Shown here: piece by piece, positions 2,333-45,126 of the stretch
How the letters are laid out: the number at the start of each line of letters is the position of its first letter
Numbering within the stretch: the first letter of the stretch is position 1
Assembly (NCBI GenBank): GCA_041663025.1
Contig: JBAZRE010000003.1
Location: 2,157-66,156 of the forward strand
Source: Minisyncoccota bacterium
GTDB lineage: Bacteria > Patescibacteriota > Minisyncoccia > Phycocordibacterales > Phycocordibacteraceae
Reading direction: 5' to 3'
DNA: 64,000 nucleotides
Notes under the pieces: generated by a model
Databases searched by the model: none
What the model was told of the DNA's origin: nothing
Seen by the model: only the letters and a program-made list of their open reading frames with translations
Position numbers and translations under genes: made by a program

Positions 2333-4018
2333 CTACCTCGGCAAATCAACCGTGTCGGCGACTTCGGAGAGGGAGGTGATGCCGGCGAGCGCCTTCAAGA
2401 TGCCATCTTGTGCCATGGTGAGGTAGCCCTGCTTCGCGGTGAGCTTCGCGATTTCATTTTCTGGAGGATTGTCGCGGAGGAAGGTTGCTAGCTCATCGTC
2501 CATAAAGATCGCTTCATAGAGGCCGACACGGCCGTGATAACCAGTCTCTTCATCACTCGCAGGAGCGGCATCCCAGATGGTCTCGATTTTTTCAGGAATG
2601 AGCGATTTGTCGGTGAGGGGCTCAAACACTTTTACAATCATCGCCTTCTCTTCATCGGTGAGAGGGCGTTCTTTTTTCTTATTCGGATCTAGCTTGCGCA
2701 AGAGGCGCTGCGCCATAGAGACGGTGACTGCCGAGCCAAACGATTTTGGATCTACACCAAGATCTGCAAGGCGTGGGAAGGTGCCTGCAGCGTTGTTGGT
2801 GTGAAGTGTCGAGAAGACGAAGTGGCCCGTGAGTGCCGCTTGGATGGCAATGTCTGCTGTCTCACCGTCGCGAATCTCGCCGACCATGATGATATCAGGG
2901 TCTTGGCGCACTATTGATTTTAGTCCTTCGGCAAATGTGTATTTCGTCCCCTCAACCTGCGTCTGTACAATACCGTCCAAGTGATATTCAACCGGATCTT
3001 CGATTGTAATTATTTTAATTTCAGGCGTGTGGATCTCGCGGAGGAATGAATAGAGCGTGGTTGTTTTACCACTGCCAGTGGGGCCGGTGGTGAGGAGCAT
3101 GCCGTTGGGGCGTCGAATCTCGGTCTCAAGTCGTGCCAAGAGTTTGGGCTGAATACCAAGCTCCTTATACGAAACCTTAGTCGCCTCTGGATTGAGCACG
3201 CGCATCACAATTGCCTCGCCATAGTTGCCGGGGATGAAGGAGACACGCATCTCGATGGCGTCACTTTCGCGCGAGACACTGAATCGACCATCTTGTGCGC
3301 GATTGGTGATATTGAGCTTGATGCCCGCGAGTAGTTTGATACGCGAGTTGAGCTGGTGATAGGTCGCTGGGTCAAAGAAATACGCATCAACCAGAACGCC
3401 GTCAATACGGAGACGCAGGCGTGTTCTCTCCTCTTCTGGCTCGAAGTGAATGTCAGAAGATCGGAGTGCGAATGCTCCAGCGAGAATGATCTCTATAATG
3501 CGCGAGACACGATCAAGCGACTTGAGCGTTGTGGCGTCGTCGATCTCTTGCTTCAATGCACCGCGTCCACCATTCTCCTTCGTGAGTTTTGCGAGCACTT
3601 CTTGACCAACCGCCACACCACCTGCCCTAGACTCAGTCGCGAATAAAAGATCAGCATACCGAACAAAGGCTTTCTCAAGACTTTTCTCTGAGACGAGAAA
3701 TTCTTGCAGCGTAAATTTGCGTTCTATAAGCTCTTTGCGAAGTTTTATGAACGCTGGATTGTTTGGATTGTGTATGGCGAGCGATAGAACCTCCGCAGCA
3801 CGCGCAAATGCCGCCACCTCCGCAGCACGCGCATCCGCTTCGGGTATGGTGCGGAGTGCGTCGCTGTCAATCTCCTTCAGTGAGAGGTCAACATAGGTCA
3901 TGCCGTATTTCTCAGATAGGATACGTGCCACATCCTCCTCTTCTCTCTCGTACACCTCGGCAAGCTTGCGTGTTTCTTGGTCAGTATCAAATGGTAGGTC
4001 CATAAGCGTATAATACAC
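2333..4018 (-). CDS. pilB: Type IV pilus assembly / type II secretion ATPase (PilB/GspE family)
   Basis: 561 aa with N-terminal GspII_E domain, Walker A GPTGSGKTTTLYS, Asp box, His box and Walker B of secretion ATPases. Confidence 0.85.
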   Translation of the reverse strand: MYYTLMDLPFDTDQETRKLAEVYEREEEDVARILSEKYGMTYVDLSLKEIDSDALRTIPEADARAAEVAAFARAAEVLSLAIHNPNNPAFIKLRKELIERKFTLQEFLVSEKSLEKAFVRYADLLFATESRAGGVAVGQEVLAKLTKENGGRGALKQEIDDATTLKSLDRVSRIIEIILAGAFALRSSDIHFEPEEERTRLRLRIDGVLVDAYFFDPATYHQLNSRIKLLAGIKLNITNRAQDGRFSVSRESDAIEMRVSFIPGNYGEAIVMRVLNPEATKVSYKELGIQPKLLARLETEIRRPNGMLLTTGPTGSGKTTTLYSFLREIHTPEIKIITIEDPVEYHLDGIVQTQVEGTKYTFAEGLKSIVRQDPDIIMVGEIRDGETADIAIQAALTGHFVFSTLHTNNAAGTFPRLADLGVDPKSFGSAVTVSMAQRLLRKLDPNKKKERPLTDEEKAMIVKVFEPLTDKSLIPEKIETIWDAAPASDEETGYHGRVGLYEAIFMDDELATFLRDNPPENEIAKLTAKQGYLTMAQDGILKALAGITSLSEVADTVDLPR

Positions 4019-10542: not shown

Positions 10543-10591
10543 GTGTTCATCTTATCACCCACGTTGACTTTCTGGAGAATTACTGGGCTAC

Positions 10592-10619
10592 TTGACAAAA
10601 TAGCCGAGTCGTGTATACT
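10592..10619 (+). promoter_or_regulatory. Sigma70-like promoter (TTGACA-N16-TATACT) reading toward DGR-1 target gene
   Basis: TTGACA at 10592-10597 and TATACT at 10614-10619 in the ruvA/target divergent intergenic region, about 160 nt upstream of the 10779 start. Confidence 0.5.
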
Positions 10620-10778
10620 AGTAGATAGTAAGTTCTTTGACACTAATTTGCGAGTGGTCATAGCCAAAAGACGCTGTAAATACGGCCTTTTCTGGCTATG
10701 ACCACAGACGGCCATAGTTCCACCTCGGAGGAGAGGACAATTCTAATGGGCGAATAAGCCCAACGAAAGGAGAACAAA

Positions 10779-11800: not shown

Positions 11801-12208
11801 CTCTCGTCTTTTCCCGTCTCCACTTGGAGGCGGGTTTTTCGCTATAATACCTCTCTTCCATCCACCGACCATGCGTCCTATTTCTTCAACATCTTTCCCG
11901 AGTGATATAAAATGGCTCTGCGCCATGAGTCCTGATTCCCACGCGATTTGGATAAAGAAGCGAACAGCATCAACAGCACGAATTGCTTCTTCAAGTGGGG
12001 GCAATTTTTGGTCGATCGATGCGTATGCGGTTTTACGTAGTGCGTCTAATAAGTTAAGCCAGAGCTTGTCGATCCGGTCACCAATACCGAAGCGCTCTGA
12101 ACGCGCCATTTTCCGATGAGCGACGAGCCAAATTTTGTAAGCGACTTTAGCTCGCTCAATCACCGGCAAAAGCTTCTGGGGGGGGGTTACTTCTAGGAAG
12201 AAATTCAC
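11783..12208 (-). CDS. avd: Avd-like accessory variability determinant (four-helix-bundle protein, 23S rRNA IVS protein family)
   Basis: 141 aa with heptad-rich helical pattern FGIGDRIDKLWLNLLDALRK...EEIGRMVGGWKRG resembling phage BPP-1 Avd and PF05635 proteins. It lies between TR1 and the RT but on the opposite strand. Its N-terminus overlaps the poly-G tract as poly-Pro. Confidence 0.7.
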   Translation of the reverse strand: MNFFLEVTPPQKLLPVIERAKVAYKIWLVAHRKMARSERFGIGDRIDKLWLNLLDALRKTAYASIDQKLPPLEEAIRAVDAVRFFIQIAWESGLMAQSHFISLGKDVEEIGRMVGGWKRGIIAKNPPPSGDGKRRELRETT

Positions 12209-13187
12209 TCATACGTATGAGAGTATCATTTCGGTTGAAAATATTCTCGGCGCGTGGCGAGAATTTATAAAAGGGAAGAGGAAACGTACTGACGTACAAG
12301 AATTTGAAAGATATTTGATGCATAACGTTTTAGAACTGCACCAAGAACTCGTGGCAGGCACCTATCAACATGGCGGCTATCACCATTTCAAGATCAGCGA
12401 CCCCAAGCCGCGCGACATTCATAAAGCGAGTGTGCGTGACCGACTGGTACACCACGCTCTTTATCGTCAACTCTATCCATTTTTTGACAAAACGTTCATC
12501 AGCGATTCGTATTCATGCCGAAGAGAGAAGGGGACACATAAGGCGATGAACCGCTTCAGAGCCTTTGCGCGCAAGGTTTCTAAAAATAATACGCGCACCT
12601 GTTGGGTGTTGAAGTGCGATATCAGAAAATTCTTCGCATCTATCGATCAAGCCAAACTCATACAGATTCTTAAACAGCGAATATCAGACGAACGCATTGT
12701 CCAGCTTGTTGAGAAAGTCATCACGAGTTTCTCAAGTACTGAAAAAGGGAAGGGTCTACCACTCGGGAACCTCACCTCACAACTCCTCGTAAACATCTAT
12801 ATGAACAAGTTTGATCAGTTTGTTAAACATGAGCTAAAAGCAAAGCATTATATTCGCTACGCTGATGACTTTGTATTTTTATCATCCGACCGTTCATTTC
12901 TTACCTCACTTTTGCCCCTTATTCATAATTTTCTACATGACCATCTCGCTCTTGAGTTACATCCAGGTAAGGTCTCTATCAACACGCTTGCATCCGGCAT
13001 TGATTTCCTCGGCTGGGTGCATTTTCCAGACCATCGCGTTTTACGCACCTCTACCAAAAAGCGGATGTTCCGGCGTATTATAGAAACGAAAAGTAGGAAA
13101 GAAACAGTGCAGTCATATCTCGGCCTCTTGAGTCATGGCAACACACATAAACTGCAATCAGTTGCATTTTCTGACTACAACCTATAA
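12150..13187 (+). CDS. DGR reverse transcriptase (copy 1). Track ORF starts at TTG 12315, but the conserved RT N-terminus is in frame from 12150 with no ATG/GTG/TTG
   Basis: LPLGNLTSQLLVNIY is the DGR-specific [IVL]GxxxSQ motif (replacing QGxxxSP). RYADDFVF is the YxDD active site. Upstream in-frame codons encode ...KKFTHTYESIISVENILGAWREFIKGKRKRTDVQEFERYL, the conserved N-terminal extension of DGR RTs. Confidence 0.85.
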   Translation, partial: ARSITGKSFWGGVTSRKKFTHTYESIISVENILGAWREFIKGKRKRTDVQEFERYLMHNVLELHQELVAGTYQHGGYHHFKISDPKPRDIHKASVRDRLVHHALYRQLYPFFDKTFISDSYSCRREKGTHKAMNRFRAFARKVSKNNTRTCWVLKCDIRKFFASIDQAKLIQILKQRISDERIVQLVEKVITSFSSTEKGKGLPLGNLTSQLLVNIYMNKFDQFVKHELKAKHYIRYADDFVFLSSDRSFLTSLLPLIHNFLHDHLALELHPGKVSINTLASGIDFLGWVHFPDHRVLRTSTKKRMFRRIIETKSRKETVQSYLGLLSHGNTHKLQSVAFSDYNL

Positions 13188-13477: not shown

Positions 13478-13487
13478 ACTCAAAAAG

Positions 13488-13559
13488 TGCCCTCGACAGG
13501 AATCGAACCTGTACCACCTCCTTCGGAGGGAGATATTGTATCCATTCAACTACGAGGGC
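13488..13559 (-). tRNA. tRNA-Arg (anticodon CCG)
   Basis: Reverse complement GCCCTCGTAGTTGAATGGATACAATATCTCCCTCCGAAGGAGGTGGTACAGGTTCGATTCCTGTCGAGGGCA. Anticodon stem TCTCC/GGAGG with loop CTCCGAA. Confidence 0.8.
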
Positions 13560-13757: not shown

Positions 13758-13805
13758 GCACAGAAATAGAAAACACCGCGCAGGCGGTGTTTTCTATTTC
13801 TGTGC
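13758..13805. terminator. Perfect 22 bp-stem hairpin abutting the 3' end of tRNA-Arg(GCG); likely terminator or processing signal
   Basis: gcacagaaatagaaaacaccgc / gcag / gcggtgttttctatttctgtgc. The last 3 nt are the tRNA 3' end. Confidence 0.5.
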
Positions 13806-13875
13806 CCCCACGAGGAATCGAACCTCGATTACGACCTCCGCAAGGTCGCGTCCTGATCCGTTGAACGACAGGGGC
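13803..13875 (-). tRNA. tRNA-Arg with anticodon read as GCG (unusual isoacceptor, tentative)
   Basis: Reverse complement GCCCCTGTCGTTCAACGGATCAGGACGCGACCTTGCGGAGGTCGTAATCGAGGTTCGATTCCTCGTGGGGGCA. Anticodon stem CGACC/GGTCG with loop TTGCGGA. T-arm CGAGG/CCTCG. Acceptor has two G-U pairs. Confidence 0.6.
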
Positions 13876-41069: not shown

Positions 41070-42470
41070 ATGACTGACTCAAACTTGATGGAAAAAATAG
41101 TCTCGCTCTGCAAGCGTCGCGGATTCGTGTTTCCCTCATCTGACATATATGGAGGATTCGCTGGTGTGTATGACTTCGGTCCACTTGGCGTCGAACTCGA
41201 GAATAATCTCAAGGCACAGTGGTGGCGCAAGATGGTATATGAGCGAGACGATATTGTCGGGCTCGATTCGAGTATCTTCATGCATCCAAAGATTTGGGAG
41301 GCAAGTGGGCATACGAATGGATTTTCTGATCCTATGGCGGAGTGCAAAGATTGCAATACTCGCATCCGTGTCGATAAGGCGCTTGAATCCATCGGCATTA
41401 CTGCTGACGAGAAGATGAGCGAGAACGAGATAAACGATCTCTTTGATGCACATCGAAAAGAAATTGCTTGTGAGAAATGTGGAAATCACAATTTCTCGAA
41501 TGCGCGGAAATTTAATTTGCTCGTGCAATCAAATCTCGGTGACTTCACTGAGCAGGGTACCAATCCTTCGTATCTGCGCGGAGAAACATGCCAGGGTATT
41601 TATGTAAATTATAAAAACGTGCTTGATTCAAATCCGATGAAATTGCCGTTTGGCATCGCACAGATCGGGAAAGCATTTCGAAATGAGATATCACCGCGGC
41701 AATTCCTCTTCCGCACACGTGAGTTTGAGCAGATGGAAATGCAGTATTTCACGCGACCAGAACAGGAAATGGAGGAATATAAAAAACTAAAAGAATATCG
41801 TTGGAATGCAGTTCTAGATCTTGGTCTGCAAGAAAAGAATCTTCGCTGGAAACAGCATGAAAATCTCGTGTTTTATGCGAAGGACGCGTGGGACATCGAA
41901 TACGCATTCCCTTGGGGCTTTGATGAACTTGAGGGTGTTCATGCGCGTGGCGACTATGATCTCACACAGCATTCAAAAGGGAGTGGAAAGACACTTGATT
42001 ATTTTGACCAAGATACCAATGAGCGTTTCATCCCGCACATCATAGAATCTTCTGGAGGTGTTGGGCGCTTATTCCTCGCAGTGCTCACTGATGCATATCG
42101 CGAAGATGAGTTGGGTGGAGAGGTGCGCACCTATCTCGCGCTCGCGCCGAAGATCGCGCCGGTGAAGGCGATGGTCTCGCCGCTTTTGAAAAATAAACCA
42201 GAGCTCGTCGAGAAGGCGCGCGAGGTGCGCACGGAACTACAGAAAATTCATCCAGCCATCGCGTGGGACGACAACGGCAATATCGGCAAGCGTTATCGCC
42301 GTCAAGATGAGATCGGTACACCATTCTGCATCACAATCGACTTCGACACTTTGGGAGAAAACCCAGAATTAACAGACACTGTCACTCTGCGTCATCGCGA
42401 CACCGGCGAACAAGAACGTCTTACCATTTCTCAAATACTTGACAAGATAAAAGAAGCGTGTATACTTTAA
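41070..42470 (+). CDS. glyQS: Glycyl-tRNA synthetase (alpha2 dimeric type)
   Basis: 466 aa. Class II motifs, GlyRS-specific N-terminus (KRRGFVFPSSDIYGGFAGVYDFGPLG) and a C-terminal anticodon-binding domain. Confidence 0.9.
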   Translation: MTDSNLMEKIVSLCKRRGFVFPSSDIYGGFAGVYDFGPLGVELENNLKAQWWRKMVYERDDIVGLDSSIFMHPKIWEASGHTNGFSDPMAECKDCNTRIRVDKALESIGITADEKMSENEINDLFDAHRKEIACEKCGNHNFSNARKFNLLVQSNLGDFTEQGTNPSYLRGETCQGIYVNYKNVLDSNPMKLPFGIAQIGKAFRNEISPRQFLFRTREFEQMEMQYFTRPEQEMEEYKKLKEYRWNAVLDLGLQEKNLRWKQHENLVFYAKDAWDIEYAFPWGFDELEGVHARGDYDLTQHSKGSGKTLDYFDQDTNERFIPHIIESSGGVGRLFLAVLTDAYREDELGGEVRTYLALAPKIAPVKAMVSPLLKNKPELVEKAREVRTELQKIHPAIAWDDNGNIGKRYRRQDEIGTPFCITIDFDTLGENPELTDTVTLRHRDTGEQERLTISQILDKIKEACIL

Positions 42471-42553
42471 TATAGACAGTACGTTGAAAGGTGCAAGAGG
42501 AATAATCCGCTTGCAAGACATGCATGCCCTGAGAAAGGGAAAGGAGAGCGGAA

Positions 42554-43252
42554 ATGAAGAAAGACATGTTAGGTTCGATAGTACGCGCGGCAGTGGGTGT
42601 CCCTCAAAATCGGCTTGAAGTGCTCGCCAAAATCGCGAGTGCGATCGCAGAGGACAACCCGAATGGCAACGAGTGGTTCTCTCGTTTCGAGAATCTACTC
42701 AAAGAAGAGTTGTCTTCTAAAACGGCAGTCGTATTCGAGCGCAATGAATATGGCCACATCGTGTTCACGATCACAGGTCTCGATCTCACTGGCGCACAAG
42801 AGATTACACGGCTCACGGATGCAAAGTATCGCATCGGCGACTACGCTAAGCAGATGCTCACGAGCACGAAGCCCGATGGGTATGATGCGAAGCATAGACT
42901 CGTCGCGGGGCAGTCGTACATGATCGTTCTCATTCCTGGTAAGGAGATTGAGAACGACTCCGGCCGCACGACTGCAAATCTGCAGAAGCTCGGTGAAAAG
43001 CTCGGCTACGACAAACCGCTTGCCGGAATCGTCCAGCGCATTCGCGAGGCGGTCTCTGACAAACAGATGGAAGAAATGGGGTTCTGGTATATCGCCGGGC
43101 TTCATAATCCCATCACGGGTGCCGATGGCCGCCCGGGCGTGCTGGGTGCGGGTCGCGACGATGATGGTCGTTGGCTCTTCGGCTATTGGGGCATTCCCGA
43201 TGGTCATTGGGACGGCGATGGCGCGTTCGCCTTCGTCCTCCCTGCAAGTTAG
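42554..43252 (+). CDS. DGR-2 target (variable) protein; C-terminal ~45 aa encoded by VR2
   Basis: 232 aa with no signal peptide. C-terminus ...ADGRPGVLGAGRDDDGRWLFGYWGIPDGHWDGDGAFAFVLPAS is encoded by VR2. Confidence 0.8.
   Translation: MKKDMLGSIVRAAVGVPQNRLEVLAKIASAIAEDNPNGNEWFSRFENLLKEELSSKTAVVFERNEYGHIVFTITGLDLTGAQEITRLTDAKYRIGDYAKQMLTSTKPDGYDAKHRLVAGQSYMIVLIPGKEIENDSGRTTANLQKLGEKLGYDKPLAGIVQRIREAVSDKQMEEMGFWYIAGLHNPITGADGRPGVLGAGRDDDGRWLFGYWGIPDGHWDGDGAFAFVLPAS
43112..43247 (+). repeat. DGR-2 variable repeat (VR2), 136 bp
   Basis: Aligns with TR2 (43579-43714). I count 22 mismatches, and all are TR adenine to G/T/C in VR. Confidence 0.9.
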
Positions 43253-43302
43253 AACTTGTACCTTCGAATCTTAGGGCTTGCCCTTGGATTCTTAACTCTT
43301 AA

Positions 43303-43328
43303 TCCCGCACTTTAGTGCGGGATTTTGT
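43303..43328 (+). terminator. Intrinsic terminator after DGR-2 target gene
   Basis: cccgcac ttta gtgcggg followed by ATTTTGTT. Confidence 0.6.
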
Positions 43329-43578
43329 TATATTGAAAGAGGTAGTAGGTGAATACGCGGGCGATCACTAGAGCACTAGAGCAATCTTAGGTTTCTCGCT
43401 ACCGAGGCCAGTATCCGTACATTGAGAGCCTGTTAGATTACGGTTTAATAGGGGGGATGTATGCAGACACTTCAAAAATGAAGATACTTGGTGCGCTCGC
43501 TTGGTCCATTTCGATGGCAGATACGATTCAACTCGGAGAGTATTCTATGGGTGGTGGCATTGATGAGCGAGCGTACAA

Positions 43579-43714
43579 ATCACGGATGCCGATGGCAACC
43601 CGAACGTGCTGAATGCGAATCGCAACGATGATGGTCAATGGCTCAACAGCTATTGGGACAATCCCGATAATCATTGGAACGACAATGGCGCGTTCGCCTT
43701 CGTCCTCCCTGCAA
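43579..43714 (+). repeat. DGR-2 template repeat (TR2), 136 bp
   Basis: AAC-rich (ADGNPNVLNANRNDDGQWLNSYWDNPDNHWNDNGAFAFVLPA). Followed by hairpin ctcgctcgt...acgagcgag plus TTTTGTTTTG at 43726-43760. Confidence 0.9.
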
Positions 43715-43738
43715 CTCTCTTCATTTCTCGCTCGTACC

Positions 43739-44089
43739 TCACGGCACGAGCGAGTTTTGTTTTGTGAGCTGACCATTCCAACCGCCAAGCATCTTGCCGA
43801 TTTCTTCGAGCGGAATGGAGAGTGCAACATATTCTTTCGTCTCAAGCGATTTGGTCTCCCAGAGAATCAACAGAAATATTTTCAACGTTTCAAGCTTGCG
43901 TATGGCGAGCCGCACCCATGGTTGCTTCTCGGTTTTTGAGAGGAATGTTGCGCTCGCGACTGCCTCAATCAGTGTGACAAATTCTGCATCTATCTTGCCA
44001 CCGAGCGTATAGCGATGAGTCTTAGGGATTGTCTGATAAAATGTATACCATAGGATATACGCATGCTTAATTCTCTCCAAAACAGGCAA
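43739..44089 (-). CDS. avd: Avd-like accessory variability determinant (copy 2)
   Basis: 116 aa starting at TTG. IPKTHRYTLGGKIDAEFVTLIEA...EEIGKMLGGWNGQL matches avd1 and the BPP-1 Avd pattern. Antisense to TR2 and RT2. Confidence 0.7.
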   Translation of the reverse strand: MPVLERIKHAYILWYTFYQTIPKTHRYTLGGKIDAEFVTLIEAVASATFLSKTEKQPWVRLAIRKLETLKIFLLILWETKSLETKEYVALSIPLEEIGKMLGGWNGQLTKQNSLVP

Positions 44090-45126
44090 GAGCTTCTGGG
44101 GGGGGGGTTACTTCTAGGAAGAAATTCACTCATTCATCCGAGCATATCATTTCAGTTGAAAATTTACTCGGAGCGTGGCAAGAATTTATAAGGGGCAAAC
44201 GCAAACGTGATGACGTACAAGAATTCGAACGGTATTTGATGCACAATGTTTTAGAATTGCATCGCGAGCTTGCTGCTGGCACCTATAAACACGGCGGCTA
44301 CCATCACTTTAAGATCAGCGACCCGAAACCACGCGATATTCATAAAGCGAGCGTGCGAGATCGGCTCATTCATCACGCTCTCTATCGCCAACTTTATCCA
44401 TTCTTTGACCGTACATTCATACTAGACTCGTATTCGTGCCGCCTCAACAGAGGCACTCATCGGGCGATGAACCGCTTTCGAGCTTTCGCATATCAAGTAT
44501 CTAAAAACGACACGTGCACTTGCTGGGTTCTCAAATGCGATATACGAAAGTTCTTCGCTTCCATCGATCAAGAAATATTGATGGAGATTATTAGTACCTA
44601 TATATCAGATAAACGCATCTGTGTACTTATCCAAAATATCATCACCAGCTTCAACTCTTGTGCAACAAGGAAGGGTTTGCCACTCGGGAACCTTACCTCG
44701 CAACTGCTTGTGAATATCTATATGGGTGAATTTGACCAGTTTGTTAAACATAAACTAAAAGTGAAGTATTATATCCGCTACGCAGACGACTTTGTGATTC
44801 TTTCTGCTAACAAAAATTATTTGTTGCGAGTACTACCATATATGGAAGCATTTTTGCATGACCAACTAAAGCTCAGTCTGCATCCAGACAAAGTATTCAT
44901 AAGAACCCTTGCCTCAGGGATTGATTTTCTTGGTTGGATGCATCGCCCCAATTATCGCGTATTACGGACGGCAACCAAAAATAGGATGTTCCGCACGATC
45001 AAAAAGAGCGAAGGGAAGCCTGAAGTGCTGCACTCTTATCTTGGCATGTTGAGTCATGGAAACACACAGAGACTTCAAGAGAAAGCAATTTCTTTCGCAA
45101 ATATGCTAGGATGCCCGTATGGATAA
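44071..45126 (+). CDS. DGR reverse transcriptase (copy 2). Track ORF starts at TTG 44236; conserved N-terminal coding is in frame from 44071 without a canonical start
   Basis: LPLGNLTSQLLVNIY ([IVL]GxxxSQ) and RYADDFVIL. About 75% aa identity to RT1. Upstream in-frame ...KKFTHSSEHIISVENLLGAWQEFIRGKRKRDDVQEFERYL. Confidence 0.85.
   Translation, partial: FSPKQARASGGGVTSRKKFTHSSEHIISVENLLGAWQEFIRGKRKRDDVQEFERYLMHNVLELHRELAAGTYKHGGYHHFKISDPKPRDIHKASVRDRLIHHALYRQLYPFFDRTFILDSYSCRLNRGTHRAMNRFRAFAYQVSKNDTCTCWVLKCDIRKFFASIDQEILMEIISTYISDKRICVLIQNIITSFNSCATRKGLPLGNLTSQLLVNIYMGEFDQFVKHKLKVKYYIRYADDFVILSANKNYLLRVLPYMEAFLHDQLKLSLHPDKVFIRTLASGIDFLGWMHRPNYRVLRTATKNRMFRTIKKSEGKPEVLHSYLGMLSHGNTQRLQEKAISFANMLGCPYG

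Follow-up and report, generated by a model that had tools for sequence, protein, structure and literature searches.

The window, by which we mean the whole stretch of 64,000 nucleotides taken from contig JBAZRE010000003.1 (positions 2,157 to 66,156 of the forward strand) of the Minisyncoccota bacterium assembly GCA_041663025.1, contains two cassettes which we read as diversity-generating retroelements (DGRs). We report here on the second one, cassette 2, which extends from 42554 to 45126 and comprises the gene of a variable target protein, a variable repeat (VR) at the end of this gene, a template repeat (TR), the accessory gene avd and a gene for a reverse transcriptase (RT). Particular attention is given to a poly-G:C tract at the junction of avd and RT which has a counterpart in cassette 1. 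The features are the following, with positions counted from the first letter of the window.

42439..42466, plus strand: promoter-like site TTGACA-16-TATACT upstream of the target 2 gene, 11/12 consensus positions, putative in function
42554..43252, plus strand: target (variable protein) gene, 232 aa, with VR at the C-terminus
43112..43247, plus strand: VR, the last 45 codons of the target gene, differing from TR only at TR adenines
43266..43291 and 43301..43324, plus strand: two hairpins downstream of VR, the second followed by a T-run and terminator-like
43326..43334, plus strand: extended -10-like box TGTTATATT, candidate promoter of the TR RNA as read from the sequence
43342..43581, plus strand: conserved structured RNA domain immediately 5' of TR; its modelled core R1 is 43467-43581
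43579..43714, plus strand: TR, 136 nt with 36 A
43715..43764, plus strand: TR 3' element, made up of the linear motif (GCAA)CTCTCTTCATTTCTC, a covarying GC hairpin at 43727-43754 and a U-run
43739..44133, minus strand: avd2, with the canonical Avd body at 43739-44089 and a predicted leader from ATG 44133-44131 across the C-tract
44063..45126, plus strand: RT2, conserved body from 44108, RVT_1 at 5.5e-23, motifs LGNLTSQ/YADD
44098..44107, no strand assigned: poly-G:C tract of cassette 2, 10 bp, where the 5' ends of avd and RT overlap antisense
12178..12186, no strand assigned: poly-G:C tract of cassette 1, 9 bp

VR and TR can be aligned without a gap over 136 nt with 22 mismatches, and all 22 fall on adenines of TR (17 A>G, 4 A>T and 1 A>C, with 22 of the 36 TR adenines changed). 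The probability that 22 of 22 mismatches land on A by chance is 3e-16. In cassette 1 the mismatches are likewise confined to TR adenines (15 of 15). The adenines of the TR of cassette 2 are placed at codon positions 1 or 2 of the VR frame in 34 of 36 cases, TR encodes N at most of the variable sites (AAY codons), and approximately 10^19.7 protein variants are encodable. VR is identical in two assemblies of the window strain. At their 3' ends VR and TR share the final 30 nt and diverge directly after. This identical end, together with the hairpins at 43266-43324 downstream of VR, corresponds at the level of the sequence to an arrangement like that of the initiation of mutagenic homing site. The hairpin region has a folding energy of -31.1 kcal/mol (z -5.5), and a terminator scan gave a match at 43301-43324. 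By analogy with the Bordetella DGR the hairpins might take part in homing.

The reverse transcriptase RT2 has LPLGNLTSQ, which fits the DGR-type motif [LIV]GxxxSQ, and RYADD with the catalytic YxDD; both are invariant in the clade alignment. The product of avd2 matches Pfam bAvd at 2.4e-11, above the cutoff of this family, and NCBIfam DivGenRetAVD at 1.8e-16 and 60 bits, which is below the 80-bit cutoff; the latter match was aligned from residue 1 of the form starting at TTG 44089. The target protein has a C-type-lectin fold with VR at its C-terminus. Since the differences between VR and TR are confined to adenines, and because of the RT motifs, the Avd match, the fold of the target and the gene layout (TR, then avd on the opposite strand and directly adjacent, then RT, that is architecture B3, in a Patescibacteria host), cassette 2 is practically certain to be a genuine DGR. 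Architecture B3, TR-(avd)-RT, makes up 90% of the DGRs of the candidate phyla radiation (CPR), and several DGRs are present in about 10% of DGR-bearing genomes (PMC5758913, Wu et al. 2018). As the B3 layout has already been published, cassette 2 is in itself an ordinary member of a known family.

An earlier note, made from the sequence alone, had described cassette 2 as a second complete DGR. Its positions for VR and TR, its count of adenine-only mismatches and the antisense orientation of avd2 were borne out, as was its description of a 232-aa target with a C-terminus unrelated to target 1. The word complete applies to the presence of an own target, TR/VR pair, avd and RT; at the assembled tract length of 10 G, however, no in-frame start covers the conserved N-terminus of RT2, and the ATG-initiated leader of avd2 falls out of frame. 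Both cassettes do have the G-run block that it had noticed upstream of the RT genes, with 10 G in cassette 2 and 9 G in cassette 1, but the block turned out to be a variable-length repeat within overlapping coding regions.

The junction of avd and RT

RT2 has a conserved frame which is open from 44108 (VTSRKKFTHSSEHIISVENLLGAWQEF...) over 339 codons and in which many residues are invariant. In this frame there is no ATG, GTG or TTG between the tract and the invariant IISVENLL..W..F block. The first canonical start listed for this frame at the assembled tract is TTG 44236, inside the conserved region, and both the NCBI record and an independent ENA assembly give RT2 as an N-terminally truncated protein of 295 aa starting at ATG 44239. 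The sole canonical start which covers the conserved N-terminus is ATG 44063, and it takes 8 or 11 G to bring this codon into frame, when it reads MLNSLQNRQELLGGGVTSRKKFTH... into RT. A homologue, P0192, begins with MLNDRQNPLGG... and matches the predicted RT2 leader MLNSLQNRQELLGGG; the homologues P0209 and P0234, which are of the type of cassette 1 and in frame, begin with MNDEP...RQ..GGG.

The same tract lies in the 5' end of avd2 on the other strand. From ATG 44133-44131 the minus strand reads MSEFLPRSNPPPQKLLPVLERIK... into Avd when there are 8 or 11 G, and the leader is out of frame at 10 C. The 5' ends of avd and RT accordingly overlap antisense from 44063 to 44133, the predicted leader peptides are MSEFLPRSNPPPQK (Avd) and MLNSLQNRQELLGGGVTSR (RT), and the tract codes for Gly-Gly-Gly in the RT leader and for Pro-Pro-Pro in the Avd leader. 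In cassette 1 RT1 has no start codon at 9 G, and reading from ATG 12116 needs 8 or 11 G; avd1 is in frame through GTG 12208. At the assembled lengths both window cassettes appear to be RT-off. G or C runs of at least 7 occur three times in the 64-kb window, namely as the two cassette tracts and as a C8 in ruvB.

We compared the junction across related loci, of which 37 were found via the target and 80 via the RT; the RT clade is large, with at least 7,000 homologues at E <= 1e-100. Wherever an upstream avd match was present, avd lay on the opposite strand directly upstream of RT (75 of 75 loci, none on the RT strand). The sample for the junction consists of the 70 non-redundant related loci with a G tract, which is 6-14 nt long and most often 9 or 10. 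Across 710 kb of related loci we counted 74 G/C runs of at least 8, never more than one per locus, and wherever the avd-RT junction was mapped and had a tract of at least 8 (59 loci) this run is the junction tract. An ATG on the avd strand that opens a frame into the C-tract is found in 70 of 70 loci. It lies antisense to CAT, a codon of the conserved T-H in RT, and even the L009/L016 subgroup retains the sequence ACTCAT, although in that subgroup it does not fall in the RT frame. Straight after the tract the Avd frame encodes the conserved residues PPP-(Q/R)-(K/R)-L-L-P-(V/I)-L-E-(R/K) with synonymous codon variation and without a conserved start codon: a canonical avd start after the tract is absent in about half of the loci, and an in-frame TTG or GTG is found there in about half.

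Five loci are free of poly-G. Two of them carry another repeat at this position, (CTGG)9 in L048 (~2930-3010) and (GT)8 in L081 (~820-880), and in both avd is in frame; L099 and L110 have no repeat, and L063 has a minimal overlap in which the first eight RT codons (MFNDRKIH) are exactly antisense to the first eight Avd codons (MYLPVIEH). From the predicted ATG avd is in frame in 5 of 5 poly-G-free loci versus 19 of 70 poly-G loci (Fisher 0.0025), the latter count of "on" loci applying only to the ATG nearest the tract. The simpler idea of a single "on" length class per locus was dropped, as in the strain represented by P0143 further ATGs in different frames yield states with RT alone or Avd alone.

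With respect to RT the loci fall into two types. In type A (37 loci) RT starts at an ATG of its own (M-x-R-I-Q-F-x-H-x-Y-E-D-I-I), which lies 10-30 nt beyond the tract on its right side, and an upstream ATG frame is co-phased with avd in only 3 of 37. In the 27 loci of type B, to which both window cassettes belong, RT lacks a start on the right of the tract, and 27 of 27 have an ATG frame on the left which joins RT at a tract length that brings avd into frame too; the two types differ clearly in this respect (Fisher 5e-15). Relative to the in-frame length, 14 tracts are in frame, 25 are one base longer and 25 are one base shorter. Among the 120 nearest RT homologues in the database, 68 are called N-terminally truncated, 31 have leaders through GG(G) and 19 have a leader of their own.

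Tract length is also polymorphic between otherwise identical sequences, as was seen in two related strains, both of the Rifle groundwater series. In the P0143 strain the tract is the only difference within 2652 nt among five contigs taken from different assemblies, and it appears as G10, G10, G9, G9 and T+G9. These contigs share an identical 283-aa RT product, and the same RT body (100% identical) is also recorded as a 354-aa product through GGG. In this strain 8 or 11 G give RT and Avd, 9 or 12 G give RT only, and 7 or 10 G give Avd only. The second case are L009 (G10) and L132 (G9), two different metagenome-assembled genomes (MAGs) with 0 mismatches over 2824 nt and one gap, which is the tract. 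Exact-protein look-ups with the window's target, RT2 and RT1 yielded only one further assembly with unchanged tract lengths, and the RT next in similarity is 75% identical. A comparison of near-identical pairs among the 80 metagenome loci found, as regards different tracts, only pairs of the same length and one MAG with interrupted tracts. In this Adlerbacteria MAG three contigs (L006, L007 and L008) carry near-identical cassette copies with the interrupted tract GGGGGGGAGGG or GGGGGAAGGGG; these could be true multiple copies, a mixture of strains or a homopolymer assembly error.

The template RNA

The region between the target gene and TR contains a second conserved element. The -10-like box of cassette 2 corresponds to TGTTATAAT in cassette 1, which occupies the equivalent position, and the locus alignment shows the box to be conserved. 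In both cassettes it comes directly after the terminator hairpin of the target (43301-43324 in cassette 2). The approximately 240 nt between the box and TR are conserved across loci which have different targets, and RNAalifold predicted 53 pairs for this domain, 34 of them with compensatory changes. A covariance model of the 116-nt core, R1, found 60 related loci at E values of 1e-10 to 1e-26, all on the strand of the RT gene; in the ten loci used as seeds, for which the position of TR is mapped, the domain lies just 5' of TR. In the R1 alignment 96.6% of the cells are paired compared to 31-53% in slid controls, and there are 323 double changes versus 84 in shuffles. The domain did not match any family of Rfam 15. 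In one locus, L015, two matches to the R1 model (1794-1912 and 3225-3342) stand 1.4 kb apart on one 4.8-kb contig and may represent two TR RNAs or tandem cassettes.

Downstream of TR the motif GCAACTCTCTTCATTTCTC is conserved in 10 loci, and the sequence of the hairpin that follows varies while its pairing is kept. This hairpin has a folding energy of -21.6 kcal/mol (z -3.9), and an equivalent hairpin is present in cassette 1. The TR 3' element is likely the terminator of the TR RNA and, judged by its sequence, a candidate priming region. The TR RNA thus probably ends before avd, and RT and avd would therefore need promoters of their own. As both cassettes share these RNA elements, use of the RNA of one cassette by the RT of the other seems plausible from the sequences, yet the two Avd proteins are only 27% identical.

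Interpretation of the junction tract

We consider it quite probable that the tract lies inside overlapping coding 5' ends of avd and RT. It is found inside the avd leader and, in the loci with start-less RTs, inside the RT leader as well. Starting from this gene model we propose the following course of events. A strong promoter would drive the soluble 232-aa target, the C-terminal C-type-lectin surface of which is encoded by VR. A separate small transcript from ~43340 to ~43765 would start from the extended -10 box and contain, in this order, the structured 5' domain, the 136-nt TR, the CTCTCTTCATTTCTC motif and the terminator hairpin; here conservation and covariation are observed and the transcript ends are predicted. 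As is known from the family, RT and Avd would copy TR into cDNA with random bases opposite the adenines, and the cDNA would replace VR. Of this presumed mutagenic copying the trace seen in cassette 2 is that 22 of 22 differences are at A. Being prone to slippage, the tract would by its length set the reading frame of both genes, with both on at 8 or 11 bp; the assembled tract of 10 bp would leave RT2 without a usable start and the Avd leader out of frame. The tract would then constitute a stochastic, heritable and reversible on/off contingency switch for DGR mutagenesis, and mutagenic retrohoming would take place in a subpopulation or in bursts.

Because of the coding overlap together with the length polymorphism in relatives, we lean slightly towards such a switch, in which replication slippage would gate RT and Avd. 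For the clade as a whole we regard it as an even call whether one hypermutable repeat (poly-G:C, occasionally (CTGG)n or (GT)n) serves as a two- or three-state switch that leaves most cells DGR-silent.

Several observations weigh against the switch. The fraction of 19 of 70 loci in frame is not different from one third (p = 0.31), and a non-coding tract would give the same. VR is heavily diversified though the consensus is "off", which points either to past activity, to a minority of cells, or to expression that is independent of an in-frame tract. The two assemblies of the window strain agree on G10 and G9 and possibly go back to the same underlying data, and the G9/G10 differences between metagenome assemblies could in part be homopolymer consensus noise. 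In a sigma-70 promoter scan no convincing promoter for avd or RT was found, the avd ATG has no obvious Shine-Dalgarno sequence, and a form of Avd without the leader could start at TTG 44089 or, in cassette 1, at GTG 12208.

On the minus strand at 44131-44160 there is an extended -10-like box (TGnTATnnT), TGATATGCT, which ends 7 nt before the avd ATG and is antisense to the invariant D-I-I codons of RT (GATATCAT). If it were the avd promoter the avd mRNA would be leaderless, and this would explain the missing Shine-Dalgarno sequence. We do not count the box as evidence because the coding constraint on RT alone explains its sequence and spacing.

The main competing explanation, which we think rather unlikely, is programmed recoding. 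Long C and G runs are slippery, and transcriptional slippage or ribosomal frameshifting (tRNA-Pro on CCC-C, tRNA-Gly on GGG-G) would provide low constitutive levels of RT and Avd at any DNA length, the tract being an expression attenuator. Recoding would suit the fact that two thirds of the consensus sequences are out of frame and the DGRs nevertheless look functional with diversified VRs, and the frame-neutral length distribution fits a length-tolerant mechanism. Classical programmed slippage sites, however, have a fixed length and a fixed frame relation, and the junction tract is 6-14 nt long and occurs in all three phases. Furthermore, the (CTGG)9 of L048 and the (GT)8 of L081 are substrates of DNA slippage and not slippage sites of the ribosome or RNA polymerase, and three loci work without any repeat.

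It is less probable still that the tract is a non-coding regulatory spacer in a shared promoter or 5'-untranslated region of divergent genes. In that case translation of Avd would begin directly behind the tract and that of RT at a non-canonical codon, and the tract length would tune promoter spacing or a Shine-Dalgarno-like element. A frame state that is indistinguishable from random would be expected of a spacer; in the 37 loci of type A, where RT has its own ATG, the tract is indeed outside the RT coding sequence, and about half of the loci offer avd an in-frame TTG or GTG after the tract. A spacer does not account for the other half, where a canonical avd start after the tract is missing though the residues there are conserved as protein. 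Nor does it agree with the poly-G-free loci, all five of which are in frame from the upstream ATG, with the open and co-phased upstream frames of the start-less RTs in 27 of 27 loci, or with the 31 RT products which are called through GGG.

We give little credence to an assembly artefact, in which the true tracts would always be in frame and the observed lengths would be homopolymer errors. G runs of at least 9 do have higher error rates, and the three copies of the Adlerbacteria MAG differ in interrupted tracts. On the other side, two independent data sets (the loci and the database gene calls) each have some two thirds of the cases out of frame, a share far above the short-read consensus error for runs of 9-10 nt, and independent assemblies agree for the window strain as well as for another strain (the P0123 set), where five assemblies have G10. 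Finally, that cassette 2 and RT1 are decaying elements, pseudogenised by frameshifts and with fossil VR differences, would fit the lack of a start in RT2 at 10 G and in RT1 at 9 G, but is hardly credible in view of the absence of other lesions (the RT frame is open over its 339 codons with all invariant residues kept), of the 118.9 bits which the TR RNA domain scores against R1 (partly circular, the locus being one of the ten R1 seeds), and of the same "defect" at the same tract in dozens of lineages, which is therefore maintained.

The target, the two cassettes and known systems

According to the record of the identical target protein, the host is a MAG assigned to Candidatus Paceibacterota; the target is also present in run SRR6484324. 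Target 2 is one of at least 168 Patescibacteria proteins of ~220 aa which form a family with a conserved core and a C-terminus in which fixed and free positions alternate (DSDGxPxVLxAxRxxDGRWLxAxWGxPxxxWxDxGAFAFxVPAS). Neither target 1 nor target 2 matched a family model in Pfam or NCBIfam, and a comparison of the two targets detected no similarity. Since target 2 has no hydrophobic or membrane segment (Kyte-Doolittle maximum 0.79 over 19 residues), it is likely cytoplasmic, as far as can be judged from the sequence. For many target-2 homologues in other genomes (L001, L003, L005, L010, L013 and others) neither RT nor Avd nor TR lies within 6 kb; such genes could be undiversified paralogues, or orphans whose diversification is provided in trans.

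As the earlier note had stated, cassette 2 is located between a gene for a glycyl-tRNA synthetase-like protein (a class II aminoacyl-tRNA synthetase with an HGTP anticodon domain) and genes for an AI-2E transporter and methionyl-tRNA synthetase. Cassette 1 is flanked by ruvA and rpsT, and just downstream of cassette 1 and rpsT there are two tRNA-Arg genes, CCG at 13487-13559 and GCG at 13802-13875. A scan with Rfam at gathering and at permissive thresholds returned only tRNAs and sub-threshold chance matches near the terminator. A 52-nt block with TTGACA-16-TATACT precedes both targets (10589-10640 and 42436-42487, 73% identical). In cassette 2 the block and the end of the synthetase gene (codons ILDKIKEACIL*) overlap, and the block forms the left edge of the similarity between the cassettes. 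The C8 of ruvB (minus strand, 445-1446) is at 1432-1439 in codons 3-5, ATG TCA ACC CCC CCC AAA = MSTPPK, in frame, and may likewise be prone to slippage, here at the 5' end of a gene for recombination.

The two cassettes had been called paralogous, with RTs that are about 75% identical and share their motifs. The motifs LPLGNLTSQ and YADD are indeed found in both, and we measured 73% amino-acid identity over 333 aa; the DNA blocks common to both cassettes are 73-82% identical. RT1 and RT2 belong to one 11-member subclade, but they are not clearly sisters: in the subclade comparison RT2 is 73.5% identical to the RT of L040, 72.9% to that of L041 and 72.5% to RT1. A recent duplication of the whole cassette is thus ruled out by the low Avd identity, by the unrelated targets and by the fact that RT2 is no closer to RT1 than to RTs of other organisms. 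Genes of the Avd1 and Avd2 types are intermixed within the subclade, and the Avd type tracks the target type: all 4 Avd1-type loci with a detectable target (L040, L044, L062 and L067) carry target-1-like genes.

Around RT the homology between the window cassettes begins ~18 nt to the left of the tract. Here ~48 nt around the tract (GGCAA.AGCTTCT-Gn-TTACTTCTAGGAAGAAATTCACTCAT; 12160-12215 versus 44080-44135) are almost identical, the DNA on the left of this block is unrelated, and RT to the right is ~82% identical. The exact block was found in no other locus. Such near-identity suggests gene conversion within the genome or a double-coding constraint, and the overall pattern speaks for cassettes that share an RT-plus-junction module, probably by exchange or conversion.

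To our knowledge the regulation of DGR activity is largely unknown; uncontrolled retrohoming is presumably costly. A slippage switch, if true, would place targeted hypermutation itself under the control of a contingency locus. It would explain why many CPR DGR reverse transcriptases are annotated as truncated or start-less, why some DGRs score as "inactive" in population surveys, and how bursts of diversification could arise in a subpopulation of tiny-genome cells. The junction repeat would also give annotation pipelines a concrete rule for RT and avd genes. The structured RNA 5' of TR with the 3' motif and hairpin is likely the functional DGR RNA of the clade, which is needed for an in vitro reconstitution of CPR DGRs.

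Compared to the CPR B3 DGRs (PMC5758913; DGR clade 2 of Roux et al. 2021, PMC8144416) cassette 2 is alike in gene order, antisense avd and Patescibacteria host, in the C-terminal VR of a small protein without known domains, in the adenine-specific differences and in the chromosomal site among housekeeping genes. In the accessible texts on CPR DGRs, to which Paul et al. 2017 does not belong, there is no mention of a repeat at the avd/RT junction, of overlapping 5' ends, of missing RT starts or of a structured RNA 5' of TR, and a literature search for DGRs with homopolymers, phase variation, frameshifts or simple-sequence repeats retrieved no description of a junction tract. The parts that appear to be new are the repeat within the overlapping leaders of avd and RT and the structured RNA 5' of TR.

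With the DGR of the Bordetella phage BPP-1 (mtd-avd-TR-brt) cassette 2 has in common a variable protein with a C-type-lectin fold, the identical VR/TR 3' end, a hairpin downstream of VR and, as predicted from the sequence, mutagenic retrohoming by RT, Avd and a TR RNA. It differs in that avd is antisense, whereas in BPP-1 avd is co-directional and its 3' part is contained in the DGR RNA. Unlike in BPP-1, the TR RNA has its own structured 5' domain and terminator-like hairpin end before avd, the host is a bacterium and not a phage, and the target is apparently cytoplasmic. There is no sequence-level match to Treponema denticola TvpA and to targets of the FGE type, Pfam FGE-sulfatase and DUF1566 being absent from target 2, which also differs from these proteins in having no lipoprotein signal and a VR that ends in the GAFAF.VPAS motif.

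With the contingency loci (poly-G/C in Neisseria, Campylobacter and Helicobacter, tetranucleotides in Haemophilus) the junction tract shares a homopolymer of 6-14 nt within the first codons, a strain-variable frame, length as the sole change between identical sequences and interchangeable repeat types. The classic hosts of such loci are pathogens, whereas the host here is an environmental ultra-small bacterium. Unlike the known loci, the junction tract would gate the enzymes of targeted hypermutation and not a surface antigen or a restriction-modification system, and a single tract lies in two antisense-overlapping frames, which makes three states possible.

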